Origin: Nanobdellota archaeon
GTDB lineage: Archaea; Nanobdellota; Nanobdellia; Woesearchaeales; SKGA01
DNA length: 48,777 nt
Assembly: GCA_051819745.1 (NCBI GenBank)
Contig: JBNJGO010000005.1
Location: 1 to 48,777 of the forward strand
Reading direction: 5' to 3'
A program made the translations under genes and the position numbers. Shown here in pieces: positions 1 through 24,657 of the stretch; within the stretch, counting starts at the first letter, position 1, and each line of letters opens with the position of its first letter. The notes under the pieces were generated by a model. It worked only from the letters and a program-made list of their open reading frames with translations. It did not search any database and was not told where the DNA came from.

Positions 1-3000
1 ATACGTTCAAGCTCTTTGCAAAGGATCTTGAAGGAAATCGTAACGACACACTTTCATACAAGACAGTTTCGGTAAAAGGGTTGGCACAGCTGGAATGGGA
101 TGCGCCGACAGGAGATCAGAACAGGACGACGTTGAATGTCAGCTGTGAAGTTATTGACAACGAGACCGGCAATCCGATCTCAGGATATCCGGTAACATTC
201 TATGATGGGGATCTCGGTTACTCTATAGGAAGCAATGATACGAACGATTCAGGAATCGCGCAGATACAATACGATTACTCGGGAGCGCTTGTCGGACCAG
301 ACGAGCTTTCATGTGAATTTAACGATGAACCATCGCTCAACTATGAAACAACAGGATCAACAACTGTCTCAGAGACGGTTGACTTCTACGGATACCTCAA
401 CGCGACTATATCTGATCCTGCTTCGAATCAAATATTATATCGTGGCAATGGAGAAATGCTAGATGTTACTGTCGTTGATGAATTTGATAATGTTCCACTT
501 GATGAAAATGGAAACACTGCTTCCTTATTTACAATATGGGATAATTCTTCCGACGAACAGATAGCGACAGGCATAAATACTATTTGGAATATTCCTTCAG
601 ATTACTCCTTAGGGGATGAGCTATTGAATGTAACTGTTTCAGAAAATTATTATTATTCATCAAATGATTCTGTCGATGTTGAAATACGAAGTTATGCCGA
701 GATAAATATGGATTCTCCTGCTAGCGATACATATCCTTTTGGACAAGATATAGATATTAATTGTACTGTCACAGATACCTCTCTTGCAACTACCATCTCT
801 AGTTATGATGTTAATTTCTATAATGATGGTGGTCTTTTAGGTATTGTTTCCACTGATGTTAATGGTGTTGCATCATTCCCTATTTCAACAACAACTCTTG
901 GAAATGGAGACCATCTTCTTAGTTGTAATATTTCTGACGATCCTGCTAATTATTATGATGTTGGTTTGAGTGATGAAGATTCAGTTAGTATTTCGGTTGA
1001 TGGTTCAAATCCTGAAATAAATTATGATGTTTCTACTGATAGTAATGGCACGTATAATAAATCTTGGATTTTTGTCAATGTAACTGTTATTGAAGATAAT
1101 ATAGATTCAGTCTTATTATTTTGGAATGGTGTTGCTCAATCGTTTGACACAAACGAGAGTACTGCTTATTATTCTAATATTTCTTCATTATCTGATGGAG
1201 AACATACATTTTATGCTTTTGTTAATGACACTATTGGTAATGAGAACCAAACTTCCTCTCGAAATATAACGCTTGATACTGGTGCTCCAAATCTTATAAT
1301 AGATACTCCTCTTTCAACGTATTACAACACCACTTCTATTGACTTGAATTACACTGCTAGCGATCAAAATAGAGATTCTTGTTGGTATTCTCTTGACGGG
1401 GGTCCACAACAAGTTATTCCTGGTTGTGCTAACATGTCTCTCTCACCATCTGAAGGAGTTCATACTATTGAAGTTGGTGTCAATGATACTGTTGGTTTTG
1501 ACACTGTCGAATCAGTTACCTTTACAACAGATTATACTTCTCCTAGTGTCTCTATCTCTTCCCCTCAAAATACTGTAGAATATACTGCTAAAGATATTGA
1601 TCTTAATTATACTGTAAGTGATAATACCTTAATTGATTCGTGTTGGTATTCTATTGATTCGCAATCGGTTCAACAACTACCTTCGTGCCAGAACACAAGT
1701 ATCTCTGGATTATCTAATGATAATCATACAATCGTTGTATTCACGAATGATACTGCAGGAAATGTGAATTCAGATTCTCACTGGTTTGAAGTAAATTATA
1801 GTGTGTTGACTGCAACACCAGTATATCCTTTGAATAATAGCGCTATAGCTAGTCAATCAATCGATGTTAATGTAACTACGAACAAACAAGCGACTGAGTG
1901 TAATTATTCTCTTGATGGCGGTGCATTTATTCCAATGACCAATTATACCTTGCTTGATTGGAACGCGACAGTAACGGGTCTTTCTCAAGGAGATCATACT
2001 GTTAGATTTACTTGTACTGACACCATTAATACTTCAACAACAGATATTGTTCATTTCACCGTTGATGTCCTCGCGCCAACCATTACATATAAAGATCCTA
2101 CTCCTCAGAATAATGATGGTCGTGCAGTTGATTGGACTTTGATTAACATTTCTTTGGATGAACCTGCTGATATTGTTAATCTTGAATGGGAAAATGAAAG
2201 TGCAATAGCTAATGTTTCTATGATTTCTGCTAATGAAACTTCTTATTATATTAATATGACAAATTTGAATGATGGAACTTATAATTTTACCGTCTATGCT
2301 AATGATAGTCTTGGCAATCTTGGCTCTGCGGAGACTAGAACTGTTGTTATTGCAACTATAGCCCCTAAAATAAATATTGATAGTCCTATGCAAACAGATT
2401 ATTCTAATAATGTTGTTGATTTGAATGTTTCATCAAATATGGAAATAACAAAATGGTGGTATGTTTTTAACGATAGAAATTTCTCTCTTGTTCCTAATAC
2501 TACAATCGCAGGAGTATTAGGTGCTAATGAGTTAACTGTTTATGGTCGGGATATATACGGTAAAGTGGGTAATGCTTCAATCAATTTCATCGTTAATGAT
2601 ACAACAATGTGGAATGATGAGTTTGATAGTCTGACTGGAATTGGAAATTCAACAAATGTAAAAACAACTGGTTCTGCTGAAATAGATTATTGTTGGCCTG
2701 TTCCTCGAAAAGATGATACTAGTGATTTCAAGAGAAATAGTTGTTGGAATTATAGGAAACCTCTTACTGTAAGCTCTTCAAGCGAACTTACTAATCAGCA
2801 AGTATTACTATCTCTTGATTTGAGTTCTGAAGAAAGTTCTGGATTATTACAATCTGCTTGTGAAGATATTAGATTAGGATTTTTGAATGAAACTTCTGGA
2901 GAAGATCAATCGCTTCCTTATTGGATAGATGATTGTTCAGATTATTCTGATATTAAAGTTTGGACTAAAATTCCTGTAATCTCAACGACAGGAACAACAG

Positions 3001-6000
3001 TTCATGTGTATTATGGTAACAATAAATCCTCAGATGCATCGAACGGAACTCAAGTGTTTGAATTATTTGATGATTTTGATACTGTTTCATCAACTGAGTG
3101 GGGTAGTAATGCGGTCAATTGGAATTCTGAAGATGGAATAGCGACACCTACAGTGGCAGGTTCTGGCTCGCGACTAACTTCAACATATACGACAGGTTCA
3201 GAATTCGCTACAGAATTATTCGTAGCGGCAAATTCTACAAGTGGAGCGGGAGGATACTTTGGAATCGGAAATGGTGCTGGAACAAAATATCTTCGGTTAT
3301 ATTTAGAACCTGAATCCAATCAAGTTAATCTTTACAATGGTGCAAATAATCAACAGTCCGTGGATTCAAGTAAACAACAACATTATACTGTTGAAACGGA
3401 TTTCACTACTGATTCTCATAAATTATATATTAATAATTCAAATACTCCTGATTTAAGCATAACAGGTTCTAGTTCTGGTTCGCAGTCTCAACCGACGTTT
3501 TACTCATATTATGTTGGTGGTTTAGAGATTGACACTTTTGCTGTTAGAAAATTACCTGTAACTTCTATAACAACCAGTTCACTCGGATCCCAACAACGTC
3601 CTGTTGTTAATGCGACGATGAAAACAAATTATATTACTCCAGATGTAATAACTGCATGGGATTCATTAACAGTCCAAGGGTCCTTCCCTTCTGGAACCTC
3701 AGCCGTATTTAGATTACTTAATCAAACAGGTGGTAATATTTGTAGTAATTTATCATATGCTCAAGTTTCTTCAGGATTTGATATTTGTTCTGATGCAGGA
3801 AACCAATCACTTGCTCTTGAAACAGATTTTATCACCGACTCTTCGACTGCGACTCCTTTGATAGATTCTCTTCAAATTTCTTGGATGGAAGAAGATTTAC
3901 AACCTCCTGTTGTTTCGCTTGTTTCCCCAGCACATATGAGTGGTGATAATGATGGCGATATTACTTTCTCTTACCAAGTTACAGACATAGGGGATGTGCA
4001 AAGTTGTACTCTATATGTAGATGATAATTCATTACAAACAAATATTTCTTCACTTGAAGGAACGACTAGAACCTTTTCAGAATCAGGTTTTTTGCCTGCT
4101 GATTATACCTGGAATGTGGAATGTACTGATACTAACGGTAATTCTGCAAACTCAACCCAACGAACAGTAACGGTTATCGATACGACGGTATTTGATCAAG
4201 CAACTGATTTATCAACTGAAAATATTTCTCAAATTAGTGATTTTACTGTTGAAAATAGTTTATTTGGTTCAGTAAATTATACTGCACCTGTAAATTTGAT
4301 TGGCGGTGCAAATATTTCTTCACTGATAAACATATCAACAAATAATGTAACGGTCAATACAATCACTGAACCAAGAATAAATGAGTCTGCAATCATAACC
4401 ATGTATGGTCTTGATTACAAAGCGACTCCTTTAATTCTTAAAGATAACACCTTGTGTCTAACGCCTGCGTGTCAAGTGAACAGTTATGCTCCATCTACAG
4501 GAACTCTTGTGTTTAACGTTAGTGGATTTAGCAGTTATACTACTATTAATAATTCAGCATTGAATATATCTGATGATGTTGATAAAGGACTGACCAAAAG
4601 AGCACAGGAAAACGTAACCTTCTATGCAAACTATACCTTCTTTGACTCAGGAGACTCGATCAACGGTTCGGGAGTGTATTGTGAAATACAATTTGAAGAA
4701 GGCACTTGGACTACTCCAGAGACAATGAGCTACGATGAGAATGAAAGGATATACACCTATAACCACTCGTTTGCAACCAAAGGATCTTACAACTGGTCGG
4801 TCTATTGTAACGGAACAGCACAAGACGGAGAGCCGATCAACCTGACTGATAATGTCACCGTAAATGAATTCATCGCCCCTGATACTACAACTCCGGACAT
4901 AGAATATGTTGAGCCAACAGACAATAATACGCAAGTAGTATCGAGAACATGGTCATATATCAACGTCAGCGCTAATGACACCAACGATATGAGTGGATTT
5001 ATCGATATGGATAATCAATTACTCGGGTACTGGAGTTTTGATGAATACTCCGGTTCGACAATTGTCGATCACTCCAGCTTCGAAAACAATGCAACCCTAT
5101 ACAGCGGAGCTAGCGTTAGTGGTGGTGTATACGATGAAATAAGAGGTAATTACTCTCAATTAGATGGTGATGACGATTATGTTGCTGCATCCTATGACCA
5201 GATATACGATGTAGAGGGTGAATTCACCCTCGAAATGTGGGTTAAAGAAGGATCACAACAGAACAGCTGGGCAACTCTTGCCAACAGAAATGGTGATAAT
5301 GGTTTTAACTTACAACACAATAACGCAAATACTGAATTCGAATTTGCAGTTGATACCAGTGAAGGAAGACAATTTATCAACCAAGCACCACCAGGGGGCA
5401 TTAACCAAGGAGAATGGTACCACGTAGCTGGAGTGTATGACGGCTCAAACATAAGACTATATGTCAATGGTGAAGAAATAGATAGCGGATCACACTCAGG
5501 AACGGTCAATCCATCAACAAGCGACCTTTATGTGGGAGCACGATATGTATATGGAAGTACAGATAGAGAATTCAACGGTTCAATTGATGAAGTGAAATAT
5601 TGGAATAGAAGTCTCTCGCCAGAAGAAATCAACGCAAGCTACATCCTGGATGCCAATGCATTCAAAAGGAATGTAACGAGTCTAGTTAATGGAACTCACT
5701 CTTTTGACGCTTGCGTCATCGATAAAGGAGGAAATAAGAATTGCACCGAAACAAGATCGATCATAATCGACCAAAACATCCCTGAAATAAGTTATGTTCC
5801 ACCAACACCAGAAGATAACGAGTACACCTCAGAAAACTGGGTGTATGTCAACGTTAGTGTTGTCGAACAGAATCTTGATACAGTAACCCTTGATTGGAAC
5901 GGAACGAATGAGACATTATCATGTCAAGGAAGCTCTCCGAATCATGTATGCGGAATCAACAAGACAGGTCTTGTAACAGGAAACTACACCATCAAAGGAT

Positions 6001-8861
6001 ATGCGAATGATAGCGCAGGATTCGAAAATAACACCTTGCAACGAAATGTCATCGTGGATCTTGATAATCCGCTAGCAACAATCCAATCACCCGGTAACAA
6101 CTCCTACCATGACACCACAAACAGTCTCGATTTAAATTACACCGTTTCGGATAATTACAATATCGATACGTGTAGCTATTCGATCGATAACGCTGCCTGG
6201 CAAGAAATACCTGGATGTAACAATATCACACTACCGAGTCTTACAAACGATGTTCACAACATAACATTGCGTGTAAATGATACTGCAGGAAATGTGAATA
6301 CAACCACTCATCATTTCGAGATAAATCTCTCAAGCCTTGATATAATACCTTCATATCCGATAAACACAACGTTCCACAATGAATCAACCATCGATTTGAA
6401 TATCAGTGTCAACAGACCGGTAACTAGTTGTAATTACACTCTCGATTCAGGAATCGCCGTTTCGATGACAAACACCTCATCTGTTGATTGGACGGCAAGT
6501 GCAACGTCATTATCAGAAGGAGAACACATTGCCAATTACACTTGTGACGATGGTATGGGAACACAAGCTAACGAAATAGTCAATTTCACCATCGATACAA
6601 CACAACCAACATTGACACTTTCTACTCCTGTCAATGAGAACCACTACAACTCCCAAGATATCGATGTCAATTATACCGCGACAGATCAAACAAACCTGAC
6701 TTGCTCGTACTCTCTTGATGAAGGGGTTTTCAATACAATAACGGATTGTCAAAACTTCACGCTATCAACGCTATCTCAAGGAAGACACAATATCACACTC
6801 AAGGTGGTCGATGAAGCTCTTAATGAGAATACAGTATTCGCTAACTTTACCGTCGATACCATCCTGCCAAACATAACAATAGAATCACCTCATAACACAA
6901 GCTATAATCATACTGAGATACCATTCAATATCACAACAAACGAACCAACAACGACATGCGAGTATGACATCAACAATACAGGTAATGTCAGCATGAATGC
7001 AGTCAGCCAAACACAATACAATGCAAGTCCTGCGCTTACAGACGGAAAATACAATGTTACCTTCCACTGTAATGATACTGCTGGAAATAGCAATGAGAAA
7101 ACAATTTCGTATGTCATTGACACAATAAAACCATCTCTTGACTTCATCCCACCAACCAAAACTGACGGGGCAACCATTTCAGAAAACCGAACGACCTTCA
7201 ATCTATCAATACATGATGCCACAACTACAAGTAGCTATATTGACTTTAATAACGAATTAGTCGGTTACTGGAATTTTGAGACCATGATTGATTCAACCAC
7301 GGTTAAAGATTCTTCCTCATACGGCTTTAACGGCACTCTACAAAATACCGTGCAATTGGATACAAACAAGAATATCAGAGGTCGATACGCCACATTCAAT
7401 GGAATCGATCAAGATATAAAGATCCCTCATCAAGACGAATTAGATATTACCGGGAACGTTTCAGTAGAAGCATGGGTTAAAGAAGGAAACCAATCAAACA
7501 GTTGGGCTAATATTGTTAACAGAAACGGAAATGATGGTTATAGAATACAACACAACCAAGAAAATACAGAATTTGAATTCGGAGCGGGTGGGGATTATGT
7601 CAGCGGTGCTCTCGGCGAAGGAATACTACAAGGGAAATGGTATCATGTGGTAGGAACGTATGATGGTCAAACATTACGATTATATGTCAACGGAGAACTC
7701 GTTTCCTCAAAATCCGAAACAGGCCCAACCCAATCTTCAACAGCTGATCTTTACATAGGAAGTTATCAAGGTCTGAGCAGGCAATTCAACGGATCAATCG
7801 ACGAAGTCAAGATATGGAATACCACGCTTACACCAGAACAAATCAATGCCAGCTACCAATCAAAAGCAACAGTGGCGCTAAACAAGTCCGACCTTCAAGA
7901 CGGCACGTACGAATATGATGGCTGTGCTATAGATAGCGCTGGAAATTATAATTGCACGACACAAACAATAACAATCTCATCAACACCAGATATCGACCTG
8001 TATGTAGAATCGATGAAACTCAACGAAACGTCAATTGTAGAAAATGATGTTGTAGATGTGATACTGAATATTACTAACAACGGAACGGCAGTTGCAGAAA
8101 ATGTCACTGTCGATCTTAACATATCTATATGGAGAGGGACAAAACAAGTCGTCTCCTCACTTAACGATACGATAGATATTATTGGAGATAGTTCTCAAGA
8201 AGTAACCTTTGAGTGGATGGCAGGACTAGGAACATACTATTTTGATGCATACCTTGATTCGAACAACAGTATCTCAGAGTTCAATGAAACCAACAACAAT
8301 AAAACCATAAATACCTCTGTCTCTGCATGGCAATTATTATACGGTGATTACAATTATACATACATACTTGGAGATGCAACCAATAAGAACTTCATAAACT
8401 GGTCTAATTTTGTTGCAAAAGGAAATGTCTATTATTCGGATGTAGATGCGAATTATTATCCATTCGACCTCAAACCCCTAAACGGAACGAACGATTTCCA
8501 GGAACTGGATCAGGCACTTGGAATGACATATTTCAACGATTCAATCAAAAAAGTTTTTGATGTTGATAATAATGGTATGGCTGATCAAACAACAAGTTTT
8601 ACCGTTGGTGGAAGTCAAATTGAAAATGTTCCTATTATTGATTCAACCAGTGCTGGAACATTCATAACAGGACTATTATGGGATTCTGCTGATGGTGGAA
8701 GCGAGTATGATGGTTCGCAAGATGTTATTGTCATAACAAAACTTAACGAATCAACTGCTGGTTTATTTGGAACATATGATTATGAAGTTCGACTACCTGT
8801 TCTATTGAGAAACCAAACTGGAATTACAAATCAAATAGAACGATATGATGAACTCCAATAA
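1..8861 (+). CDS. Giant secreted surface adhesin, 5'-truncated (Ig-like repeats, DUF2341, two LamG/concanavalin-like lectin domains, CARDB, C-terminal 'W-x-G-x-Y/F-G...Y-x-EL' domain)
   Basis: Frame of the 81..8861 ORF is open from position 3 (ACG TTC AAG CTC...), so the TTG at 81 is not the start. Repeated D-x-x-x-P-x-I Ig-like modules with Cys pairs. WNYRKPLTV...DIR...LPYWI...VWTK...YYGN resembles DUF2341 (~2740-3060). Two GYW-x-F...WYHV-x-G-x-YDG...LYVNG...F-x-GSIDEVK-x-WN LamG domains (~5020-5650, ~7255-7860). DL-x-V...N-x-G...D-x-NN-x-I-x-E-x-NE-x-NN CARDB (~7990-8310). Very dense N-x-S/T sequons. No C-terminal TM helix. Confidence 0.9.
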   Translation, partial: TFKLFAKDLEGNRNDTLSYKTVSVKGLAQLEWDAPTGDQNRTTLNVSCEVIDNETGNPISGYPVTFYDGDLGYSIGSNDTNDSGIAQIQYDYSGALVGPDELSCEFNDEPSLNYETTGSTTVSETVDFYGYLNATISDPASNQILYRGNGEMLDVTVVDEFDNVPLDENGNTASLFTIWDNSSDEQIATGINTIWNIPSDYSLGDELLNVTVSENYYYSSNDSVDVEIRSYAEINMDSPASDTYPFGQDIDINCTVTDTSLATTISSYDVNFYNDGGLLGIVSTDVNGVASFPISTTTLGNGDHLLSCNISDDPANYYDVGLSDEDSVSISVDGSNPEINYDVSTDSNGTYNKSWIFVNVTVIEDNIDSVLLFWNGVAQSFDTNESTAYYSNISSLSDGEHTFYAFVNDTIGNENQTSSRNITLDTGAPNLIIDTPLSTYYNTTSIDLNYTASDQNRDSCWYSLDGGPQQVIPGCANMSLSPSEGVHTIEVGVNDTVGFDTVESVTFTTDYTSPSVSISSPQNTVEYTAKDIDLNYTVSDNTLIDSCWYSIDSQSVQQLPSCQNTSISGLSNDNHTIVVFTNDTAGNVNSDSHWFEVNYSVLTATPVYPLNNSAIASQSIDVNVTTNKQATECNYSLDGGAFIPMTNYTLLDWNATVTGLSQGDHTVRFTCTDTINTSTTDIVHFTVDVLAPTITYKDPTPQNNDGRAVDWTLINISLDEPADIVNLEWENESAIANVSMISANETSYYINMTNLNDGTYNFTVYANDSLGNLGSAETRTVVIATIAPKINIDSPMQTDYSNNVVDLNVSSNMEITKWWYVFNDRNFSLVPNTTIAGVLGANELTVYGRDIYGKVGNASINFIVNDTTMWNDEFDSLTGIGNSTNVKTTGSAEIDYCWPVPRKDDTSDFKRNSCWNYRKPLTVSSSSELTNQQVLLSLDLSSEESSGLLQSACEDIRLGFLNETSGEDQSLPYWIDDCSDYSDIKVWTKIPVISTTGTTVHVYYGNNKSSDASNGTQVFELFDDFDTVSSTEWGSNAVNWNSEDGIATPTVAGSGSRLTSTYTTGSEFATELFVAANSTSGAGGYFGIGNGAGTKYLRLYLEPESNQVNLYNGANNQQSVDSSKQQHYTVETDFTTDSHKLYINNSNTPDLSITGSSSGSQSQPTFYSYYVGGLEIDTFAVRKLPVTSITTSSLGSQQRPVVNATMKTNYITPDVITAWDSLTVQGSFPSGTSAVFRLLNQTGGNICSNLSYAQVSSGFDICSDAGNQSLALETDFITDSSTATPLIDSLQISWMEEDLQPPVVSLVSPAHMSGDNDGDITFSYQVTDIGDVQSCTLYVDDNSLQTNISSLEGTTRTFSESGFLPADYTWNVECTDTNGNSANSTQRTVTVIDTTVFDQATDLSTENISQISDFTVENSLFGSVNYTAPVNLIGGANISSLINISTNNVTVNTITEPRINESAIITMYGLDYKATPLILKDNTLCLTPACQVNSYAPSTGTLVFNVSGFSSYTTINNSALNISDDVDKGLTKRAQENVTFYANYTFFDSGDSINGSGVYCEIQFEEGTWTTPETMSYDENERIYTYNHSFATKGSYNWSVYCNGTAQDGEPINLTDNVTVNEFIAPDTTTPDIEYVEPTDNNTQVVSRTWSYINVSANDTNDMSGFIDMDNQLLGYWSFDEYSGSTIVDHSSFENNATLYSGASVSGGVYDEIRGNYSQLDGDDDYVAASYDQIYDVEGEFTLEMWVKEGSQQNSWATLANRNGDNGFNLQHNNANTEFEFAVDTSEGRQFINQAPPGGINQGEWYHVAGVYDGSNIRLYVNGEEIDSGSHSGTVNPSTSDLYVGARYVYGSTDREFNGSIDEVKYWNRSLSPEEINASYILDANAFKRNVTSLVNGTHSFDACVIDKGGNKNCTETRSIIIDQNIPEISYVPPTPEDNEYTSENWVYVNVSVVEQNLDTVTLDWNGTNETLSCQGSSPNHVCGINKTGLVTGNYTIKGYANDSAGFENNTLQRNVIVDLDNPLATIQSPGNNSYHDTTNSLDLNYTVSDNYNIDTCSYSIDNAAWQEIPGCNNITLPSLTNDVHNITLRVNDTAGNVNTTTHHFEINLSSLDIIPSYPINTTFHNESTIDLNISVNRPVTSCNYTLDSGIAVSMTNTSSVDWTASATSLSEGEHIANYTCDDGMGTQANEIVNFTIDTTQPTLTLSTPVNENHYNSQDIDVNYTATDQTNLTCSYSLDEGVFNTITDCQNFTLSTLSQGRHNITLKVVDEALNENTVFANFTVDTILPNITIESPHNTSYNHTEIPFNITTNEPTTTCEYDINNTGNVSMNAVSQTQYNASPALTDGKYNVTFHCNDTAGNSNEKTISYVIDTIKPSLDFIPPTKTDGATISENRTTFNLSIHDATTTSSYIDFNNELVGYWNFETMIDSTTVKDSSSYGFNGTLQNTVQLDTNKNIRGRYATFNGIDQDIKIPHQDELDITGNVSVEAWVKEGNQSNSWANIVNRNGNDGYRIQHNQENTEFEFGAGGDYVSGALGEGILQGKWYHVVGTYDGQTLRLYVNGELVSSKSETGPTQSSTADLYIGSYQGLSRQFNGSIDEVKIWNTTLTPEQINASYQSKATVALNKSDLQDGTYEYDGCAIDSAGNYNCTTQTITISSTPDIDLYVESMKLNETSIVENDVVDVILNITNNGTAVAENVTVDLNISIWRGTKQVVSSLNDTIDIIGDSSQEVTFEWMAGLGTYYFDAYLDSNNSISEFNETNNNKTINTSVSAWQLLYGDYNYTYILGDATNKNFINWSNFVAKGNVYYSDVDANYYPFDLKPLNGTNDFQELDQALGMTYFNDSIKKVFDVDNNGMADQTTSFTVGGSQIENVPIIDSTSAGTFITGLLWDSADGGSEYDGSQDVIVITKLNESTAGLFGTYDYEVRLPVLLRNQTGITNQIERYDELQ

Positions 8862-8880
8862 ATACATAATGCCTTATAGG

Positions 8881-8949: not shown

Positions 8950-9927
8950 ATGAAGATTCACTCGTTTAAACAAGCGAAACAAAATAAGTCAGTGTTATCG
9001 CTACTTATAGTGCTTGCAGTAATTTTATCCTCTGCAGTTATAGCTATTGATGGTAACTCATCGGAAAATCTTACTCTAAACCATTCTTTCAATAATACTA
9101 CTATTATGAATGATTCCTTGAATGATACACTCGCATTTCCATCAAATGATTCGCAAGATGATTCTTTTGTTATTTCAAATGACTCTATTATTGAAAACTC
9201 AACAACACGTAATGCAACTTTAAACACTACTTTCAATAAGACAAACACTACTGATAATGGAACTACTACTATAATAGAAAATATTTCTTCAAACTTCTCT
9301 AACGGATTGCGAGGAACAATAATTAATGGTTCGAGTGTAATTAATAATTCTTCTTCGTTCTATCTTAAATTAGGTGATGAAAATATAACTTCGATGAACA
9401 TATCTGTTCTTTCTTCAAATCAGGAAGAAGTCGTAGTTGGAAAAGAGGTTATTCTTACTCAAACATTGAGTGTTCACAATAGTGGTGATGAAATAATAAC
9501 ACCAACTATTAATTTATGGGATGTTGAAGTTGGAACACATTTGATTAATAGTACAACTTCGCTTGAAGTTTATGATGATGATGTTTTAATTTCAGAACAA
9601 CCTTTATTTTCTCAAAAAATTAATCCTGGTCAGACTATTGATCTTAGAGTTGTTTATACATTACCTCCTGTACTGGTTGAAACATTTTGTAACCAGACCA
9701 CTTTACAAGATACCTTGCCTGAAGATGCAACAATTCTTAACCATACTATTGATCCAAATACTGTTTTAGGTACAACCTGCAGGATAGACATAACTCATGC
9801 TGGGAAATATCCTTACAAAAAATTTCTAGCTCCTATAAATATTTCTTTCACTGGAAATCTTAAAACAATCACTAATGCAAAGACTGGAGAGGAGTTAGTT
9901 CTCACTGAAAATAAACTTATACTATGA
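8950..9927 (+). CDS. Secreted Asn/Ser/Thr-rich glycoprotein, unknown function
   Basis: ORF track 8920..9927. ATG 8950 lies 5 nt after a GGTG SD. Basic n-region plus hydrophobic signal peptide, then a low-complexity N-x-S/T-rich stalk and a beta-sandwich-like region. The stop overlaps the next start (ATGA). Confidence 0.75.
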   Translation: MKIHSFKQAKQNKSVLSLLIVLAVILSSAVIAIDGNSSENLTLNHSFNNTTIMNDSLNDTLAFPSNDSQDDSFVISNDSIIENSTTRNATLNTTFNKTNTTDNGTTTIIENISSNFSNGLRGTIINGSSVINNSSSFYLKLGDENITSMNISVLSSNQEEVVVGKEVILTQTLSVHNSGDEIITPTINLWDVEVGTHLINSTTSLEVYDDDVLISEQPLFSQKINPGQTIDLRVVYTLPPVLVETFCNQTTLQDTLPEDATILNHTIDPNTVLGTTCRIDITHAGKYPYKKFLAPINISFTGNLKTITNAKTGEELVLTENKLIL

Positions 9928-16027: not shown

Positions 16028-16061
16028 TAAATGATAATTGTTTATTTTAGATGGTGTAATT

Positions 16062-16433
16062 ATGGCTCAAAAAAAAGATGATCTTGGTTTTGACAGTTTT
16101 TTTGATGGTGGTAGTGATCATACTTCTTCATCAAAATATTCAGGAGATGTATCTTTATTCAAAAAAATATTTGGAAAACAAAAAAAATCTTCAAAAAAGA
16201 GTAATTCTTCTCAGCCGGTAAGTTCATTTTATGATACTGCTGAATCAAAGCAAGAAGATGAAATTGAACAATCAATGTATGGTGTTAATGAGAAATCATC
16301 AACAAGTAGTTCTTTTCATTCGTTATCAAATCTTTTTGGTTTTTTTTGGTGGGAACTTCTTATTCTTGTTTTTGAATTAGTCTTACTGGTTTTTATTGTA
16401 CTTTATTTTTCAGGAGTTTTTATTCCATTCTAA
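16062..16433 (+). CDS. Small tail-anchored membrane protein, unknown function
   Basis: ORF track 16038..16433. ATG 16062 lies 5 nt after GGTG. Disordered Ser/Lys-rich N-terminus and a hydrophobic C-terminus. Confidence 0.7.
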   Translation: MAQKKDDLGFDSFFDGGSDHTSSSKYSGDVSLFKKIFGKQKKSSKKSNSSQPVSSFYDTAESKQEDEIEQSMYGVNEKSSTSSSFHSLSNLFGFFWWELLILVFELVLLVFIVLYFSGVFIPF

Positions 16434-16496: not shown

Positions 16497-16922
16497 TTAT
16501 TTTTGAAGAAAATTAATTATTACTTTGGTTTTTTGCTTGAGTTCTTCTTCTTTTTCTAATGGAACTTCAGCATCTCTATAAGAAATATTAATTATTTGAT
16601 TGAAGAAATTTATTAATAATTCCTTCATATTCTTGTCGATTTGAGGAGTGTTTTTTATTTCATCAAGGATTTGAAAATATGAATTCGCGTTTAATTGAAA
16701 TTTTTTTTTTAATTTGTAAAAAATTGTTCTTGTAACGTCATCTAGTTTATTATTTTCACCGTTAAAGGATCCTGAAAGTCTTTTTTCAATATCAAATTCA
16801 GAAAATTTATTTCCCACTGCGTTTGTTAATTTTATTATCTTCTTGTGTAAGTTCCAAGCAACATAGCCTATAATTCCGCTGACTATAAGAGAAACGATTG
16901 ATATGATTGATGAAATTTCCAT
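16497..16922 (-). CDS. Membrane protein, last gene of the MoxR operon
   Basis: ORF track 16497..16976. ATG at 16922 is preceded by an AGAGGT SD. N-terminal TM helix followed by a helical soluble domain. Confidence 0.7.
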   Translation of the reverse strand: MEISSIISIVSLIVSGIIGYVAWNLHKKIIKLTNAVGNKFSEFDIEKRLSGSFNGENNKLDDVTRTIFYKLKKKFQLNANSYFQILDEIKNTPQIDKNMKELLINFFNQIINISYRDAEVPLEKEEELKQKTKVIINFLQK

Positions 16923-16993
16923 ATTATACCTCTTTTTATATTTTGTAGTGTTTGCTAAATTTAAATACTTTTTCATATTTTTTTTTCTAATAA

Positions 16994-17959
16994 TTATAAT
17001 GCGCCAACTCGACTGTATAAATATAACTCTAATATTGATATGATTGCTATAAGGATGGCAATGTAATAACTGCTATTTACACTCACACTAACATTTTCAA
17101 ATGTAGCCTGTTCTAAACTTGCTTTTAATGAATCCTTGTCTTCTACTCTAAATGCATCTCCTCCTGTTTTTTCAGAGATTTCTTCAAGCAGTGTGAAGTT
17201 AAATTCTAATGAATTATAGAACTTTTTGTATTCTTCGTTAACGATTCTTTCTTGTTCTTGTTTTCCTATACCAAAGCTTATTATTGTTATATTGTCATTT
17301 ATTGCTCGACTTATTGTTTTGTTAGTGACATTTTGAGTTCCATCAGTTAATAATAATATGGTCTTATCTTGTTTTGTTCCTTGGAGCATATCTATTCCTT
17401 GTCTAAGCGCATAATCAAGATCGGTTCCGCTGTTTTCATAATCTATTTCAATCGATTCAATAGTTTTTCTTATCGCTGTAGTGTCTGTAGTCAGTTGGTG
17501 TCTGTAATCAATTCCTTCTGAGAATCCTAGAAGTCCTATTTGGGTGCTATTTGGTAGGATTCCAACCCATCTAGTTGATATTTCCTTTGCTGAAGATAAG
17601 CGATTAGGTTTATAATCACTTTTTGCCATACTTGATGAATCATCGATTAACAAAACATAGTCTGTCGTGCTAACAGGTTTAATATCATTTATCGAGATGG
17701 AATTTGTAGCTAACATAAATAATAAAATGATGACGATTATTTTTATGATAAGAACTATGGAACTAATATGAAATATGTTAAAACCGTGGGTTCTCTTTAA
17801 TGTTGTGATGTTTCCGAAATAAGTTGCTTTTTTCTTACGGAGTTTTCTCATTGAAAGAAATGAAATTACTGTTAATCCTACAAGTATTGTGAGAAGAATT
17901 AGATTTTGAAGAGGGCTATCTATAGTGATTGCTAAAGAAAATATATTTATCGTTAAAAT
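16994..17959 (-). CDS. VWA-domain membrane protein (BatA-like), probable ATT start
   Basis: MIDAS DDSSSM...GT...LLTDG. TM helices flank the VWA domain. The frame is open upstream of ATG 17851 and encodes an extra TM helix (PLQNLILLTILVGLTVISFLS). GAGGTG SD lies 5 nt before the in-frame ATT at 17959. Confidence 0.85.
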   Translation of the reverse strand: MLTINIFSLAITIDSPLQNLILLTILVGLTVISFLSMRKLRKKKATYFGNITTLKRTHGFNIFHISSIVLIIKIIVIILLFMLATNSISINDIKPVSTTDYVLLIDDSSSMAKSDYKPNRLSSAKEISTRWVGILPNSTQIGLLGFSEGIDYRHQLTTDTTAIRKTIESIEIDYENSGTDLDYALRQGIDMLQGTKQDKTILLLTDGTQNVTNKTISRAINDNITIISFGIGKQEQERIVNEEYKKFYNSLEFNFTLLEEISEKTGGDAFRVEDKDSLKASLEQATFENVSVSVNSSYYIAILIAIISILELYLYSRVGAL

Positions 17960-18855
17960 ATTTCCACCTCTTCCCCGCCCATTGATTTAATGAATGCTTT
18001 GCTAAAATCTTCCCCTGTTGTTATCATGAAACAATGCTGTCCGTATTCGTGAAATACATCTTTGATATGTTCCATTTCTACTTTTGCTCGAACTTCATAT
18101 TCTTCTCGTGCCTTTGTCATATCCGTTAAATATGTTTTTTCACTTACAGGGTCTTTAACATACATTTTTCCGATATGTTTAGGAAGTGTATAATCAACAG
18201 GATCTTTTACCATAATCCCATATACTTTTGCAAATCTATTGGCAATGTCAGGGAGAATTAATTCTGGTTTGGAGTTGATGAAATCTGATATTATAAAAAT
18301 TATTGAATTTTCATCGTAATTATTGATCAGATTATTTGTCAATCCATCCCAATCTTTATCTCCACCATGTCCTTTTTTATCGCTCATGACATGAAGTAAG
18401 TGAATGAAATCGTTTTCAGGATCGACAAATCCTATTCCTTTTGAGGAAAATACACCTCCACTCACCCTATCGCCTGCTTCAACCGCTGCGTGCGATAATA
18501 TTCCTCCAATTAAGGATCCAAATTCATTTTTTGTGTATTTGTTTGTTCCAAGCAACATTGAATCTGAAACATCAAGAACAATAACAATATTAATATCTCT
18601 TTCTTCACGGTATGTTCTTAAATATAATTTATCTGTTCGAGCAAATATTTTCCAATCGATACGGCGAGCATCATCTCCTTCTTGGTATCGTCTTATTTTT
18701 TCAAACTCAAGTCCTTTACCTGAAATCAAATCATAATATATTATGTTTAATCTGAAAAATTCTGTAAGGTACCCTGCTTCGTGCATCGTCTTTTTTATCA
18801 ATTCTTCAAACTCGAAAGTGTTGGCGACAGGTCCTTGATTGTGTTCTGTTGTCAT
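17953..18855 (-). CDS. DUF58 family protein (MoxR-associated, VWA-like)
   Basis: GLEFEKIRRYQEGDDARRIDWKIFAR...LYLR-x-Y-x-EE...LDVSDSM...ISDF DUF58 motifs, directly downstream of moxR. Confidence 0.92.
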   Translation of the reverse strand: MTTEHNQGPVANTFEFEELIKKTMHEAGYLTEFFRLNIIYYDLISGKGLEFEKIRRYQEGDDARRIDWKIFARTDKLYLRTYREERDINIVIVLDVSDSMLLGTNKYTKNEFGSLIGGILSHAAVEAGDRVSGGVFSSKGIGFVDPENDFIHLLHVMSDKKGHGGDKDWDGLTNNLINNYDENSIIFIISDFINSKPELILPDIANRFAKVYGIMVKDPVDYTLPKHIGKMYVKDPVSEKTYLTDMTKAREEYEVRAKVEMEHIKDVFHEYGQHCFMITTGEDFSKAFIKSMGGEEVEIF

Positions 18856-18868
18856 TGTAGATTCCTAT

Positions 18869-20356
18869 TTATACCGCATCAACTTTTTGAAGTACTTCTT
18901 CAACTATTTTATCCGGAGATATGTTGTGTGCTTTACCTTTATAGTTCATGCTAACTCTATGTCTTAAAACAGATGGTGCTACAAATTTAATGTCGTCTGG
19001 CAAGACATAATTACGTCCTTCAAGCATTGCTTTAGCTTTTGCAGCGACACCCAAATAAATACTTGCACGAACTCCCGCACCATATTTTATGTATCGTATT
19101 CCTTCAATATTCTTGTTTTTTCCTCTTGTTGCTTCTACAATATTAAGAATGTATGTTCTTATTTTTTGAGATATATATACTGTTTTTACTTCTTTTTGGA
19201 TTTCCAGTAGTTCTTCTTTTGTTATTGCTTGGTGTACTGTTTTTCCTAGTTTACTTTTTGTTGTTGCGTTTTCAGTAATTATCTTTAGTTCGTCTTTGCG
19301 AGCAGGATAATCTAAAAATACTTTAAGCATAAACCTGTCAAGAACTGCCTCGGGGAGAGAGTATGTTCCTTTGTTTTCAAGAGGGTTTTGTGTTGCAAGA
19401 ACTAAGAATGGTGGTTGAAGGATGAACTCATCATTTTCAATGTTTATTTTTTTCTCTTGCATCGCTTCCATTACTGCAGCGTGCGTTTTTGGTGGTGCCC
19501 GGTTTATTTCGTCTGCGAGAACGAAATTAGCGAAAATAGGTCCCTTGTATGTTGTGAACTTTGAGGTTTTAGGATTATATATTTGCCCTCCAATAACGTC
19601 TGCAGGAAGTAAATCTGGAAGAAACTGTATACGTTTGAATGTGGTTCCCGAAATTGTTTTTTGCATCGTTTCAACAAGCAATGTTTTTGCAAGTCCTGGA
19701 ACTCCTTCCATCAGAATATGAGAATCACACATTAATGATATTGTAACTTGTTCTGTTATTTGTTCTTGTCCTATAAATACTTTTGATATTTCTTGTAACA
19801 TTCGTTTTAATTTTGCCGAATATCTTTTACAATTATTAATGCTGATGATTCCTTTTTGTTCAGTAGTTTGATATGTGTTTTCTGGATCTGGTTCTTCAAT
19901 TGTAGGTGTTTTTTCCTCTTGTTTTTCTTCTGCTTGAGAGTGCGGTTCTTGTCTTTCATTTACAATTGTTTCCTTCTCCTTTTGAATTGTTGGGTTAGGA
20001 AGAACTGTTTCTCGTTCTTGTTGTGTTTTTTTGAGCTGTTGAGATAATGCCTTATTTCGTTTTTCAATTTGATTGACTTTTTTTAGAAGTGTGGTGATAT
20101 TATTGTTTGTATTTTGTTTTGTTGTTTTTTTCTTAGTTGCTTTCTTTCTTGTGGTTTTTTTTGGTGGTCTTCCTGGACCTCGTTTTTTTTGAGTTGTGCT
20201 TCGTGTTGCTTTCTTTCTTGTGGTTTTTTTTGGTGGTCTTCCAGGACCTCTCTTTGTATTTGTTGTTTTTTTCTTAGTTGTTTTTCTTGTTCCTTTTTTT
20301 CGAGTATTTTTTGATTTAGAATATGATCTTGCTGTCTTACGTTTAGTTCTTGGCAC
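18869..20356 (-). CDS. moxR: MoxR family AAA+ ATPase with a Lys-rich, AT-hook-like N-terminal extension
   Basis: EGVPGLAKT Walker A, RIQFLPDLLPAD, LADEINRAPPKT, ATQNPLE-x-x-GTY-x-LPEA-x-LDRF. GTG 20356 follows a GAGGTG SD. The ORF-track ATG 20440 overlaps the minus-strand TATA box. Confidence 0.93.
   Translation of the reverse strand: MPRTKRKTARSYSKSKNTRKKGTRKTTKKKTTNTKRGPGRPPKKTTRKKATRSTTQKKRGPGRPPKKTTRKKATKKKTTKQNTNNNITTLLKKVNQIEKRNKALSQQLKKTQQERETVLPNPTIQKEKETIVNERQEPHSQAEEKQEEKTPTIEEPDPENTYQTTEQKGIISINNCKRYSAKLKRMLQEISKVFIGQEQITEQVTISLMCDSHILMEGVPGLAKTLLVETMQKTISGTTFKRIQFLPDLLPADVIGGQIYNPKTSKFTTYKGPIFANFVLADEINRAPPKTHAAVMEAMQEKKINIENDEFILQPPFLVLATQNPLENKGTYSLPEAVLDRFMLKVFLDYPARKDELKIITENATTKSKLGKTVHQAITKEELLEIQKEVKTVYISQKIRTYILNIVEATRGKNKNIEGIRYIKYGAGVRASIYLGVAAKAKAMLEGRNYVLPDDIKFVAPSVLRHRVSMNYKGKAHNISPDKIVEEVLQKVDAV
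20136..20250. repeat. Coding direct repeat (2 x ~46 nt, 69-nt period) encoding RGPGRPPKKTTRKKAT
   Basis: GTTGCTTTCTTTCTTGTGGTTTTTTTTGGTGGTCTTCC(T/A)GGACCTC at 20136-20181 and 20205-20250. Confidence 0.85.
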
Positions 20357-20438
20357 AAACCCCACCTCTTTTTTTTGTAATCTAGCGTCTAGTATTTTCA
20401 CTACTATTGCTCTTTTTGTATTCCTATGACTATTGAAC

Positions 20439-20454
20439 ATTTATAAATATTTTC
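20439..20454 (-). promoter_or_regulatory. BRE/TATA promoter of the moxR-DUF58-VWA operon
   Basis: Minus strand GAAAATATTTATAAAT about 85 nt upstream of GTG 20356. Confidence 0.6.
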
Positions 20455-21739: not shown

Positions 21740-21751
21740 ATGGAAACGTTG

Positions 21752-21778
21752 TTTCCTTTTTTTATTTTTTTATTTTTT
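21752..21778 (+). terminator. Oligo-T archaeal terminator
   Basis: TTTCCTTTTTTTATTTTTTTATTTTTT immediately after the stop codon. Confidence 0.6.
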
Positions 21779-21867
21779 GATTAATTTATGTTTATTTCAA
21801 CTACATAAAGCCATATATCAAAGTTATGAAATTGATTAAATATAATTATTTATTACTTGATGATTGA

Positions 21868-21884
21868 GAACAAACTTTATAAAA
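21868..21884 (+). promoter_or_regulatory. BRE/TATA promoter of the 21947 gene
   Basis: GAACAAACTTTATAAAA about 65 nt before the ATG, which has a GAGGTG SD. Confidence 0.6.
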
Positions 21885-21946
21885 TACTTTGGTCTCATGA
21901 AGTTCAAGTATTGTAAATTAATAAAAAACAATGAGGTGTTTTTGTA

Positions 21947-22603
21947 ATGAATATGGGAAAATTATTCGCTATCTTTGCAGTGTTTTTGATGACTGCTTCG
22001 CTAGCTTTCGCAGCTCCAGGTGGTGCAAGTACTACCGTTGGTGCTAGTGAGCAAGCGTCCGGAACATCATCAACTGCTGTTGATACAGAAGGCGGAAATG
22101 TTACATCTGTTGATGTATCTGGAACCAGTGTTACTGGTAAATGGGCAGGTTTCTTCGGAAACATAAGTGGAAATATTATGCTTGGCGACTCATCAAATAA
22201 TGAGTTTTTCGAATGGACTGTTAGTAATGTTACAGGTGCTGTAGTTTATGCTGCAAACACATCTGTTACTGACTGGGGTCTTACAGCGGCTGCTGAAGCT
22301 GATATGCCTTCATATGTTCAAGGTTCAGGAACTGATAACTTTACCAATACATTCACAGCGACTGAAGCGTTCAATTCGAACTCGGTATCTGTAGCTAGTG
22401 CTCCTGTTGCTACAACATGGAACTCTACTGGTGTTGGAAACTTGAAAACGTACGCTTTAAAGAGTGGTGCTGATAGTGCTTCGGTTTTCGCTGGAATGGC
22501 AGTTGATGATACTGATGGTTTCAACGGTAACTCTGTTGATTATCAAATTGTTGTTCCTTCAGAATCAACAACAACATACAGTTTCTATTTAGAACTACCA
22601 TAA
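21947..22603 (+). CDS. Small secreted beta-rich protein, paralog 2 (putative filament/pilus subunit)
   Basis: Signal peptide (AFA-A). KWAGFFGNISGNIMLGD...FEW...VFAG...VDYQIVVP...YSFYLELP. Clearly homologous to 21053..21739. Confidence 0.87.
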   Translation: MNMGKLFAIFAVFLMTASLAFAAPGGASTTVGASEQASGTSSTAVDTEGGNVTSVDVSGTSVTGKWAGFFGNISGNIMLGDSSNNEFFEWTVSNVTGAVVYAANTSVTDWGLTAAAEADMPSYVQGSGTDNFTNTFTATEAFNSNSVSVASAPVATTWNSTGVGNLKTYALKSGADSASVFAGMAVDDTDGFNGNSVDYQIVVPSESTTTYSFYLELP

Positions 22604-22611
22604 GGTTGTTG

Positions 22612-22634
22612 TTTTTTTTTATTTTTTTATTTTT
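22612..22634 (+). terminator. Oligo-T archaeal terminator
   Basis: TTTTTTTTTATTTTTTTATTTTT after the stop codon. Confidence 0.6.
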
Positions 22635-22839
22635 CTGTTCATTCTTTTCGATCTAGCAATTGTTATGTTTACTATTATTTTGCTTTAGTCTTATAGTTTT
22701 TTTTCGTTGTAATTGGTTTTTTCATAGGCTTTGTTCAAAAGCAATGTGAGGATTTACAATCATTTATTTTGGACGACACCTTTCATTCGAAACATTTATA
22801 AAAACATGTTCTTCTCAGTATAGGTAAAGGGTTGAGAAA

Positions 22840-24657
22840 ATGATATCAAAAAAAGTGTTTTTTACGTTGTGGGGTGTTGTGTTTTTACTGTTTTTATCTT
22901 CGCTTGCTTACTCTGCAGATATTCATGTCGCTAATTCTGAAGACTGGAAAGATGTTTATAGTGTTATGCTAAAAAGTTCCTTGGAAGATAATAAAGGGTT
23001 TTTTCTCAATTCAGATACTTTAACAGGTTTTACTGAAGTCACTTCTCGAAATGATGATATTTTTTTATATGAATCAAATAATCCTTACATTAATAATCTT
23101 GATGGGCAATTATCTTCTGTCGGTTATACTACTCAAGTGGGTTCTGAATCTTCTCAAATGAATTTAGATCTCGATCCTCGTAACGGTAAGTATTATGTGA
23201 TTTCTTCTGATAATCCTCGAGTAGGTCTTTCTTTAGCGCCTCTCGCGATCAAGGAAAATGCGTGGGTGTTTATTGTTGATGATCAAACTGCTGGTCAAAT
23301 CGCAAATCGTCTTGAAGATGCTGATTCTGTTATTGCTGTAGGAAATTTTAAAAGAACTGTTCTTGAACAAATTGAAGATACGTTCACAGAATGGATTGAT
23401 AATGATAATTTATATGCTAATAGTCAAGAATTAGCTGATCGATTCGGTGTTGATGATACTGTTATTCTTGCAGATGGTTCTTTTCTCGAAGTTGAATTTT
23501 TTAGTGGAAGGACGCCGGTTGTAGTTTCAGGTCATAATAAAATTCTTAATGATACTTATTCTTTTTTGAAAGAAAAAGATGTTTCTTCTGTTGTTATTGT
23601 TGGAAATAAACTTTCCACTATTGGCGAACAAATAAGATCGCGAAGCAATAAAGAAATAAGTATATTTATTAAATTCGGTCAGAGCGATACCTCAAATACT
23701 GGAACTGTTTATGCTCTGACAATGTATCCTTTACCAAAACCAACTCTTTCTCTGACGGTGAGTGATGCGATTTATGATCCTGAAAATGAAGAATTAATCG
23801 CTCGTTTCAGAAATCTTGGTTCTGCAGGAGTATACGAAGTCTCTTCGATAACTGTAAAATCAAATGATGTTGAATTAGTAAGTGCTTCTGATGATTCTGT
23901 TCGTTACTTGGCTTCTGGTGAAACATTGCCTGTTTCATTTAATGTTAGTCTTTCCCCTTCAGAAATTACTAATGAGACTATGGTTGAATTCTATACTTCG
24001 TTCGGAGTTTATCCTTCTCAACTTGAATCTTTTTTAACAATGGAAAATAAGTTTGGTCCTCCTTTTGCAATCCCTTTAACTCTGAAAAATCTTGATGATG
24101 ATAATACTAAGTTAGAGATTGAAGATGTTGCTTATTATAAGAGTCTTAATCGTATTGGGATTAGTTTGTACAATAATGGTTCTCAGGATGCTTATGTTTC
24201 AACAAAAATCCATAATGTTGTTATTAATGGTATTGAACAAACCCTCTATAAAGAAAGTGAAGTTCAATCTGGAAAGTTAAAAACAGTTTATGTTCCGGCA
24301 TCTCTTGATAAAATTGATATTGAGGATAATGATAAATTTTCACTAGTTATAACCTATGGTGCTAATAAAGATTTAAAACTTAAAAGTATTCGTGCAGAGT
24401 ATCCATTCAAAATAGTTTCAGGTATTAATACCACTATGCTTGTTGGAGCTATTGTTGTGGTGTTGTTGTTAGTTGGTACTCTTCTCTTTTTCAAAAAGAA
24501 AAAGTCATCAAAGAAGCCGTCTAGTGGTGCTTCTTCCAAGAAAAAGTCCGGTTCTGATGCTAGTTCTAAAAAAGAGTCTTCGAAAAAAGAAGAAAACAAA
24601 CCTTCTTCAAAAAAGAAAACTCCTGCAAAAAAGAAGTCCAACAAGAAATCCTCTTAA
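22840..24657 (+). CDS. Membrane-anchored S-layer-like/cell-envelope protein with a Lys-rich cytoplasmic tail
   Basis: TATA at ~22796. Signal peptide (AYS-A). Repeated alpha/beta units resembling cell-wall-binding repeat 2, then Ig-like domains, a C-terminal TM helix and a KKKKSSKK...-rich tail. Confidence 0.75.
   Translation: MISKKVFFTLWGVVFLLFLSSLAYSADIHVANSEDWKDVYSVMLKSSLEDNKGFFLNSDTLTGFTEVTSRNDDIFLYESNNPYINNLDGQLSSVGYTTQVGSESSQMNLDLDPRNGKYYVISSDNPRVGLSLAPLAIKENAWVFIVDDQTAGQIANRLEDADSVIAVGNFKRTVLEQIEDTFTEWIDNDNLYANSQELADRFGVDDTVILADGSFLEVEFFSGRTPVVVSGHNKILNDTYSFLKEKDVSSVVIVGNKLSTIGEQIRSRSNKEISIFIKFGQSDTSNTGTVYALTMYPLPKPTLSLTVSDAIYDPENEELIARFRNLGSAGVYEVSSITVKSNDVELVSASDDSVRYLASGETLPVSFNVSLSPSEITNETMVEFYTSFGVYPSQLESFLTMENKFGPPFAIPLTLKNLDDDNTKLEIEDVAYYKSLNRIGISLYNNGSQDAYVSTKIHNVVINGIEQTLYKESEVQSGKLKTVYVPASLDKIDIEDNDKFSLVITYGANKDLKLKSIRAEYPFKIVSGINTTMLVGAIVVVLLLVGTLLFFKKKKSSKKPSSGASSKKKSGSDASSKKESSKKEENKPSSKKKTPAKKKSNKKSS

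Follow-up and report, generated by a model that had tools for sequence, protein, structure and literature searches.

Gene content and a domain shared by four proteins

The stretch of DNA analysed here (the window) is the entire 48.8-kb contig JBNJGO010000005.1, 48,777 nucleotides long, from the 0.93-Mb, 98% complete archaeal genome of a Nanobdellota archaeon, and it holds a cluster of surface-protein genes that reuse one domain, which we call DOM. Along the window, the forward strand encodes a giant adhesin, p335, p551, p598, p850 and p131, the reverse strand p159 and the VWA, DUF58 and MoxR proteins, and the forward strand again two small DOM proteins, A and B, and p605 (Table 1). The genes lie where a preliminary description of the same DNA, made from the letters alone, had placed them; that description proposed a filament in which one domain serves as shaft, tip and base, beside a MoxR-DUF58-VWA chaperone operon.

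Sequence comparison confirmed that a domain of ~170 residues is common to small A, small B, the C-terminus of the giant and the N-terminus of p551, as had been proposed. Small A and small B could be aligned directly (BLASTP, 34% identity over 233 columns, E 7e-29), and pairwise similarity to the small proteins was weak for the giant C-terminus (E 3e-4 and 0.029) and for the p551 N-terminus (E 0.01). The homology of these last two copies was settled by profile–profile comparison, which was clear where pairwise BLAST was marginal: a 35-sequence profile of small proteins matched 14 giant-C-terminus homologues from related loci with Prob 98.0% and E 1.7e-13 over 149 columns (small residues 64-217 against giant residues ~2774-2951, nucleotides ~8322-8858), and a 144-sequence profile matched the giant C-terminus with Prob 99.4% and E 5.4e-21 over 166 columns. 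The seven-member p551 family was matched by the small-protein profile with Prob 96.5% and E 7.1e-10 over 165 columns (small 43-215, p551 31-225), and by the deeper 144-sequence profile with Prob 96.9%. Control comparisons with the DOM profiles were negative, p598, p850, p335 and the immunoglobulin (Ig)-like region of p605 each giving Prob ≤0.2%, and p605 as a whole giving a match confined to the signal peptide (Prob 27%).

The same result was obtained by clustering the open reading frames (ORFs) of 58 related loci, found by scanning a single genome for each species, together with those of the window's first 30 kb (59 sources in all). Single-linkage BLAST clustering placed all four copies in one component of 187 ORFs, and bridging proteins of 544-624 residues in three loci (L023, L041 and L053) were matched by the small proteins and the giant C-terminus alike. 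In a domain tree, the giant-type copies (14/14, support 1.0) and the p551-type copies (7/7, support 0.92) each formed a separate clade. Searching the genome with a hidden Markov model (HMM) built from the small family brought up, at E≤10, no proteins other than the two small paralogs.

The DOM family comprises 1,428 representatives at 50% identity (E≤1e-3), 1,082 of them at E≤1e-10; close homologues number 50, and the nearest relative of small B, at 78% identity, is labelled Nanobdellota. Most members are 215-260 residues long, and a few of 611 or 658 residues carry the domain at their end. The members tested against Pfam, NCBIfam and the sequences of the PDB gave no match, and DOM is, as judged by these searches, an undescribed and unannotated domain family. 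Among 297 aligned members, W66 and G71 never vary, and conservation is close to complete at G50 (98%), G75 (96%), L79 (99%) and E216 (96%); positions 51-53 form an N-x-T/S sequon in 209, and the first mature residues are P24 (86%) and G26 (77%), followed by a variable Ser/Thr/Gly stretch. The C-terminal end motif noticed earlier is real: E-L-x forms the exact terminus in 274 of the 297 and lies no more than two residues from it in 296. Mean-field direct coupling analysis of the same 297 sequences recovered beta-hairpins.

Table 1. Features of the 48,777-nucleotide window, with the evidence for each assignment.
Feature	Position	Strand	Evidence
Giant secreted adhesin, 5' end off contig, 2,952 residues visible	3..8861	+	2 Laminin_G_3 lectin domains, Big_13, DUF2341, CARDB, C-terminal DOM
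DOM copy, giant C-terminus	8322..8858	+	hhalign Prob 98-99.4%, E 1.7e-13 to 5.4e-21
p335, 335 residues, N-terminal membrane or signal segment	8920..9927	+	27 N-glycosylation sequons
p551, 551 residues, secreted; N-terminal DOM, then module common to p598	9924..11579	+	Profile comparisons
DOM copy, p551 N-terminus (residues ~31-225)	10014..10598	+	hhalign Prob 96.5%, E 7.1e-10
p598, 598 residues, secreted, CARDB; C-terminal module paralogous to that of p551	11622..13418	+	Pfam, profile comparison
p850, 850-residue glycoprotein; signal peptide, NEW3-like Ig domain, C-terminal transmembrane segment 814-843, basic tail	13475..16027	+	
p131, 131 residues, C-terminal transmembrane segment, no family match	16038..16433	+	
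p159, 159 residues, N-terminal transmembrane segment, downstream of VWA gene	16497..16976	-	
BatA-like VWA protein	16994..17851	-	Pfam VWA_2 E 3.5e-18
DUF58 protein	17953..18855	-	Pfam DUF58 E 6.9e-31
MoxR-type AAA+ ATPase	18869..20440	-	Pfam AAA_3 E 2.7e-55, AAA_lid_2
Small DOM protein A, 228 residues	21053..21739	+	BLASTP to B; own promoter-like box, ribosome-binding site, terminator
Small DOM protein B, 218 residues, candidate main subunit	21947..22603	+	BLASTP to A; homotrimer model
p605, 605 residues, conserved partner	22840..24657	+	Signal peptide, CWB2-like ~27-282, Ig-like ~283-520, transmembrane segment 523-555, Lys-rich tail
144-residue membrane protein, C-terminal zinc ribbon	24807..25241	+	Pfam Zn_ribbon_RanBP E 3.6e-5
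Archaeal operon of 16S rRNA, tRNA-Ala(TGC) and 23S rRNA (23S cut by contig end), far end of contig	44221-48777		

Export and predicted self-association of the small proteins

Each small gene was found to have its own expression signals, namely a TATA-like box, a ribosome-binding site (GGTGAGGTG/GAGGTG) and a T-run terminator, with the hairpin and T-run 3' of gene A at 21742-21756, and pairs of A-type and B-type orthologues are conserved in nine loci of the type I layout described below. In two RNA libraries, both from one study, there are contigs that match stretches of small gene A and of small gene B at identities of at least 99%, which is a weak hint, and DNA carry-over is possible; p605 has no cover by those contigs, and missing cover is not evidence. 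Hydrophobic N-terminal segments are present on small A, small B, p551, p598, p850 and p605. On inspection, the N-termini of DOM proteins start with a charged n-region; a hydrophobic core comes next, then a site of the A-x-A type, and the mature end is polar. The giant, the N-terminus of which lies off the contig, has 148 NxS/T sequons and no hydrophobic segment in its visible 2,952 residues.

Mature small B (residues 24-218) was modelled in three copies, using a 35-row alignment and three controls. The interface score ipSAE of the homotrimer was 0.75, 0.73 and 0.72, compared with 0.00 for the best of the 3 controls, with 225-228 contacts, a predicted local distance difference test (pLDDT) value of 89-90 for the partner and at least 99% agreement of contacts between runs. 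The model supports self-binding of small B, without demonstrating it. In it, residues 35-63 of one copy lie on the next copy at residues 62-93 and 205-218, and the receiving face is the invariant W-G-G-L-D-W motif of the family together with the fixed C-terminal strand. The interface residues were 35-63, 66-70, 129-135, 155-162, 192-194 and 200-202 on the scored copy and 25-37, 62-93, 100-107, 192-203 and 205-218 on its neighbour, and the scored copy touched the third copy at four residues only. Because it touches essentially one neighbour, the predicted assembly would be open-ended and head-to-tail, not a ring, and such a contact could propagate. The earlier proposal that the small proteins polymerise has thus acquired a predicted head-to-tail self-association (ipSAE 0.73 versus 0.00), and it is the filament itself that we infer.

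The model also bears on a different view of the small DOM proteins, as soluble secreted binders or effectors (binders of host glycans, for example) that stay unassembled, with DOM serving in the giant and in p551 simply as a shared binding domain. The lectin domains in which the giant is rich would suit such a role, as would the lack of a sequence link between DOM and any known pilin and the unknown function of the whole family. However, we consider it distinctly improbable, given the strong self-association model with controls at zero, the strictly fixed position of the domain at the extreme C-terminus, the tight coupling of the small proteins to the membrane-anchored p605, and the placement of the most conserved residues in the predicted subunit interface, with no identifiable pocket.

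Distribution of DOM loci and the membrane-anchored partner p605

Contig ends truncate many of the 58 related loci, and the locus counts are therefore lower bounds. DOM was found in all 59 sources (187 ORFs), the p605 family in 32 (37 ORFs), a helix-turn-helix (HTH) protein in 18, a 330-residue glycoprotein family in 14, MoxR in 10, and VWA and DUF58 in eight each. Two layouts recur. In type I (the window and L003-L019) the order is [VWA-DUF58-MoxR], DOM-A, DOM-B, p605, whereas in type II (L022-L048) p605 is divergent from the HTH gene, which is followed by 4-7 DOM paralogs, with an adhesin of 1,500-1,770 residues ending in DOM nearby. Related loci thus repeat what had been described for the window, tandem arrays of 2-7 DOM paralogs standing beside adhesins of 1,500-3,000 residues with a terminal DOM, and large proteins of the giant type with a C-terminal DOM occur in 13 of the 58.

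The metagenome-assembled genomes (MAGs) that contain these loci are labelled Woesearchaeota/Nanobdellota, Nanoarchaeota, Micrarchaeota, Aenigmatarchaeota and, in some cases, Methanosarcinales. The MAGs of L004, L007-L012, L009, L023, L029 and L053 are labelled Methanosarcinales/Methanosarcinaceae or Acidobacteriota; such labels could mean either that DPANN contigs were mis-binned with those of their hosts or that the loci do occur in other lineages.

Several further proteins accompany the type II layout. A duplicated HTH protein resembling sigma-70 region 4 lies directly upstream of the DOM arrays in 18 loci (L027:7606-8154 and L027:11546-12529 are among the type II genes), the 330-residue glycoprotein family (gp330; 14 loci) has an ...AEAP terminus in two members, and there are Cys-rich 700-residue (cys700) and coiled-coil 350-residue proteins. 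Compared with the DOM, p605, p335 and p598 profiles, the type II proteins gp330, p240 and cys700 gave Prob ≤2.5%; cys700 against the p850 profile gave Prob 43%.

The p605 family usually adjoins the DOM genes. Of the 151 genomes of the class that were sampled, nine contain DOM, and a strong p605 match (E<1e-100) was found in all nine of these DOM-positive genomes and in one DOM-negative genome; DOM and p605 co-occur across genomes and are therefore a patchy, co-inherited pair. It is p605, rather than MoxR, that is the constant partner tracking DOM. Genome G131, which belongs to the same genus and is 99% complete, gave no DOM match at E≤1e-5 but has a p605 homologue at C113:1788-3452 (E 1.6e-110), which could be explained by loss, divergence or an assembly gap.

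A 29-member p605 profile matched, among PDB sequences, the CWB2 region of Cwp6 from Clostridioides difficile (5j72, E 1.4e-6). The Pfam family CW_binding_2 (PF04122) was found in three of the 29 members (best E 2.1e-4), with no match for the p605 of the window itself. The Ig region, of ~250 residues, contains two Ig-like regions and gave matches to Ig-like families only, FixG_C in 8/29, LEA_2 in 6/29 and CARDB in 4/29 members. Six of the 29 homologues have a zinc ribbon joined to their cytoplasmic tail, and in the window a zinc-ribbon membrane protein of 144 residues (24807-25241) is encoded directly 3' of p605; this protein could correspond, as a split-off part, to the ribbon fused to p605 elsewhere.

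With its signal peptide, Ig-like region, C-terminal transmembrane segment, basic tail and CWB2-like region, p605 resembles an archaeal surface-layer anchor, and the CWB2 domain anchors S-layer proteins in C. difficile. DOM might, on these grounds, be a docking or lattice module, the small proteins forming a two-dimensional coat (S-layer-like or a sheath) on a p605 stalk and the adhesins plugging in through their own DOM, as in SlaA/SlaB or CWB2-anchored S-layers; the strong-looking promoters and terminators of the small genes would suit a coat protein, and a head-to-tail interface is possible within a lattice too. Nevertheless, the distribution is patchy, with nine of 151 genomes and none found in the near-complete genome of the same genus, and is more readily explained by an accessory system than by a core layer of the envelope. 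The predicted interface, moreover, involves one neighbour only (226 contacts), and 2-7 divergent paralogs together with tip-like adhesins are typical of pili. We therefore think a coat unlikely.

The MoxR-DUF58-VWA module and other neighbours

The MoxR, DUF58 and VWA genes form one operon in the Bat-like order. The VWA domain has a DDSSS (DxSxS) motif and lies between two transmembrane segments, and it probably faces outward, because of the positive-inside rule; the DUF58 protein is probably cytoplasmic, because it has no hydrophobic segment. MoxR carries a Lys/Arg-rich N-terminal extension of ~200 residues, in which (19850-20440, reverse strand) a K-R-G-P-G-R-P-P-K-K stretch is twice repeated; this stretch may resemble AT-hook DNA-binding motifs. 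No established function is known for Bat-like operons.

In the preliminary description, this module was a dedicated chaperone for filament assembly, and p551, p598, p850 and p605 together formed the base. The operon does adjoin DOM genes, both in the window and in nine related loci, the adjacency persists through inversion (the genes run the same way in L015 and L019 and divergently elsewhere), and the VWA domain probably faces outward. These 10 of 59 loci, however, all belong to the near clade of the window, and no MoxR-DUF58-VWA genes were found within 10 kb of any type II cluster, although DOM arrays, p605 and big adhesins are kept there. Neither MoxR nor the DUF58 protein has an export signal, and the literature searched contained no report that such modules assemble extracellular filaments. 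In the 58 loci, BLASTP homologues of p551, p598 and p850 were found in five, four and two, respectively. In the loci compared, it is p605 and not MoxR that recurs with DOM, and, of the proposed base, p605 is the one protein that tracks the domain; a base of p551, p598 and p850 would be conjecture. The module is at most a lineage-specific accessory, a clade-specific neighbour of the DOM genes, and a dedicated assembly role for it with a four-protein base seems to us scarcely probable.

The p551 and p598 proteins are related through a second module (p551 230-362 against p598 411-564, Prob 98%, E 1.8e-13 by profile), and homologues of p598 in related loci always lie beside a homologue of p551. 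The C-terminal modules of the two (10611-11576 and 12852-13415) end in a similar Asn/Tyr-rich segment. No family match was found for p335, which has a homologue in one of the 58 loci, and p159 has homologues in L003 and L010. Elsewhere in the same genome (G000), contig C26 encodes a second p605 paralog (3893-5575, reverse strand, E 1.9e-94) and an open-ended surface ORF of at least 1,239 residues (3-3719, reverse strand), which runs off the contig end and has a tail that is DUF2341-like and lectin-like by eye. No sequence overlap was found between contig C26 and the start of the window, and this ORF may be the missing N-terminus of the giant or a second adhesin. The region 3' of p605 holds housekeeping genes (nitroreductase, XPD helicase, TruD and adenylate kinase), and AglB is encoded elsewhere in the genome.

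A candidate adhesin-bearing surface fibre

Taken together, the results lead us to interpret the DOM genes as encoding an accessory, adhesin-bearing surface fibre or adhesin-display system, DOM-based and probably polymeric, with p605 as its core partner, an interpretation to which we give an even chance. The small proteins (B, and A as another conserved type) would be exported by Sec, cleaved at the signal peptide and then joined head to tail, the N-terminal segment (~35-63) of one subunit lying on the W66-G71-G75-L79-D81-W90 face and the C-terminal strand Y-x-F-x-x-E-L of the next, in a polymer of the donor-strand or strand-augmentation type. The giant lectin adhesin would be carried at the distal end, where it can sit because the acceptor face is kept in its C-terminal DOM (the W..YG..L.D..W face and the Y-x-E-L end). 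The p551 protein would end the chain on the cell side, and could do so because its DOM keeps the N-terminal strand, as well as the W, while the acceptor motif GNxSGxIxLxD is degenerate. The kept and degenerate motifs fit these tip and terminating roles, and with them the polarity that we infer for the fibre. As the obligatory membrane-anchored partner, p605 would be an anchor, a folding or priming chaperone, or both, and MoxR-DUF58-VWA would be an accessory in one lineage at most.

Several observations weigh against this interpretation. A predicted structure of a homologue (P0041), compared with the ESM Atlas, found only its own family above a template modelling score (TM-score) of 0.5, the next best being 0.36, and HMM searches gave no link from DOM to WxL, PapD, TasA or thread subunits. 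The coupling analysis left the partner of the N-terminal strand unplaced. In the calibration of ipSAE, the mark was reached by 20 of 30 solved homo-pairs and one of 23 solved single chains, and this calibration used two copies, so that the three-copy result falls outside it and is a model rather than a measurement. The contacts with least error are a parallel pairing of 56-66 with 72-81, which may indicate sheet augmentation rather than true strand insertion, and an incomplete fold or a groove in the subunit is conjectural. For the giant, the position of the N-terminal strand aligns at low confidence only, to the end of the CARDB domain, and it is on this stretch that its apparent lack of the strand is based. 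The matches of p605 to chaperones were subthreshold (CsuC E 0.07, YadV E 1.9, PapD_N in 2/29 members at E 0.12), as was that of DUF916 (PF06030), found in one of 29 Ig regions at E 0.024.

What stands of the preliminary description is a shared, reused domain with predicted self-association; the MoxR chaperone and the four-protein base proved weakly supported. The molecular basis of host attachment by DPANN archaea is largely unknown, and the DOM family, with exchangeable giant lectin adhesins and a constant membrane partner in p605, is a concrete candidate for an attachment fibre, in a family that spans MAGs labelled Woesearchaeota/Nanobdellota, Micrarchaeota and Aenigmatarchaeota.

Comparison with known systems

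A type IV pilus or archaellum was rejected for the DOM proteins: the N-termini are of the class I type with a polar mature end, and the type IV machinery is encoded elsewhere in the genome, with T2SSE ATPases on contigs C19 and C11.

Archaeal donor-strand filaments, among them the Sulfolobus thread (PMC9715654), TasA-like bundling pili and cannulae, share with the DOM proteins, to judge from the texts available, archaeal subunits with class-I-type signal peptides that are glycosylated, beta-rich and independent of type IV machinery, and a second paralog as a putative cap. No definitive chaperone or usher is described in the available part for the thread gene cluster (PMC9715654), and archaeal Tat-dependent pili are likewise described, in the accessible text of Sleutel et al. 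(10.64898/2026.10.17.759780), as assembling without chaperone or usher. For threads, TasA-like bundling pili and cannulae, unlike the DOM system, the available texts showed us no report of a large tip adhesin in which the subunit domain recurs, and profile searches of PDB sequences at E≤10 gave no relevant match to thread, TasA-type or cannula subunits, at the level of sequence.

The Pam pilus of bacteria of the candidate phyla radiation (CPR) relies on donor-strand exchange and has no trans-envelope machine; its chaperones have a C-terminal transmembrane helix as their anchor, and its two-domain Ig-like pilins are reported, in the text available, to be exclusive to CPR (PMC13278184). Like the DOM system as far as that account goes, it belongs to ultrasmall episymbionts, has Sec-exported subunits and has tip and terminator subunits (roles that we only propose for the giant and p551), which in Pam are encoded in one operon. 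It differs in its two-domain Ig-like pilins, to which no homology was seen; DOM has no match among PDB sequences.

A close parallel in layout is the WxL (Elr) pilus of Enterococcus faecalis and other Bacillota, a donor-strand pilus reported, in the available part of the account, to be confined to Bacillota (Sleutel et al., 10.64898/2026.10.17.759780). Its pilins are small and consist of the domain only, the domain comes last in 2,867 of 2,871 adhesins, and the chaperone ElrE has a two-domain beta-sandwich build and, like that of Pam, is anchored by a C-terminal transmembrane helix (10.64898/2026.10.17.759780; PMC13278184). The DOM loci resemble it, in so far as the available text describes it, in having small subunits that are almost wholly domain, big modular adhesins with the domain last, rare proteins with an N-terminal domain, several operons or paralogs, and an obligatory partner with beta-sandwich domains and a C-terminal transmembrane helix; like the WxL hosts, the DOM organism has no outer membrane and would have no usher. 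This is an architectural likeness only. The DOM host is an archaeon, there is no sortase or LPxTG logic, and p605 has an extra CWB2-like N-terminal region. The WxL domain (PF13731) was found in no protein of the window at E≤0.1, in none of 35 family members at E≤1 and nowhere in the genome at E≤10; DUF916 had no match in the genome, and DUF3324 (PF11797) a single irrelevant one (E 0.4) on another contig. Among the matches listed in the literature searched, there was no donor-strand system in DPANN archaea and no WxL in archaea.

The layout of the locus parallels the WxL and Pam pili, both described in 2026 preprints, with no sequence link seen to either; the most likely product would be a host-attachment fibre of a type that has hitherto been known from bacteria alone. 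Read further, and with a good deal of doubt on our part, the DOM system might be the first chaperone-assisted adhesive pilus of the donor-strand type in Archaea, a DPANN counterpart of Pam and WxL with a subunit fold that is unrelated or unrecognisably diverged, with p605 as membrane chaperone and anchor, and with the giant lectin adhesins as exchangeable tips that hold the host. If this were true, strand donation coupled to a membrane chaperone would have evolved, or been retained, among ultrasmall symbionts in the two prokaryotic domains as well as in Gram-positive bacteria, all of which lack an outer membrane.

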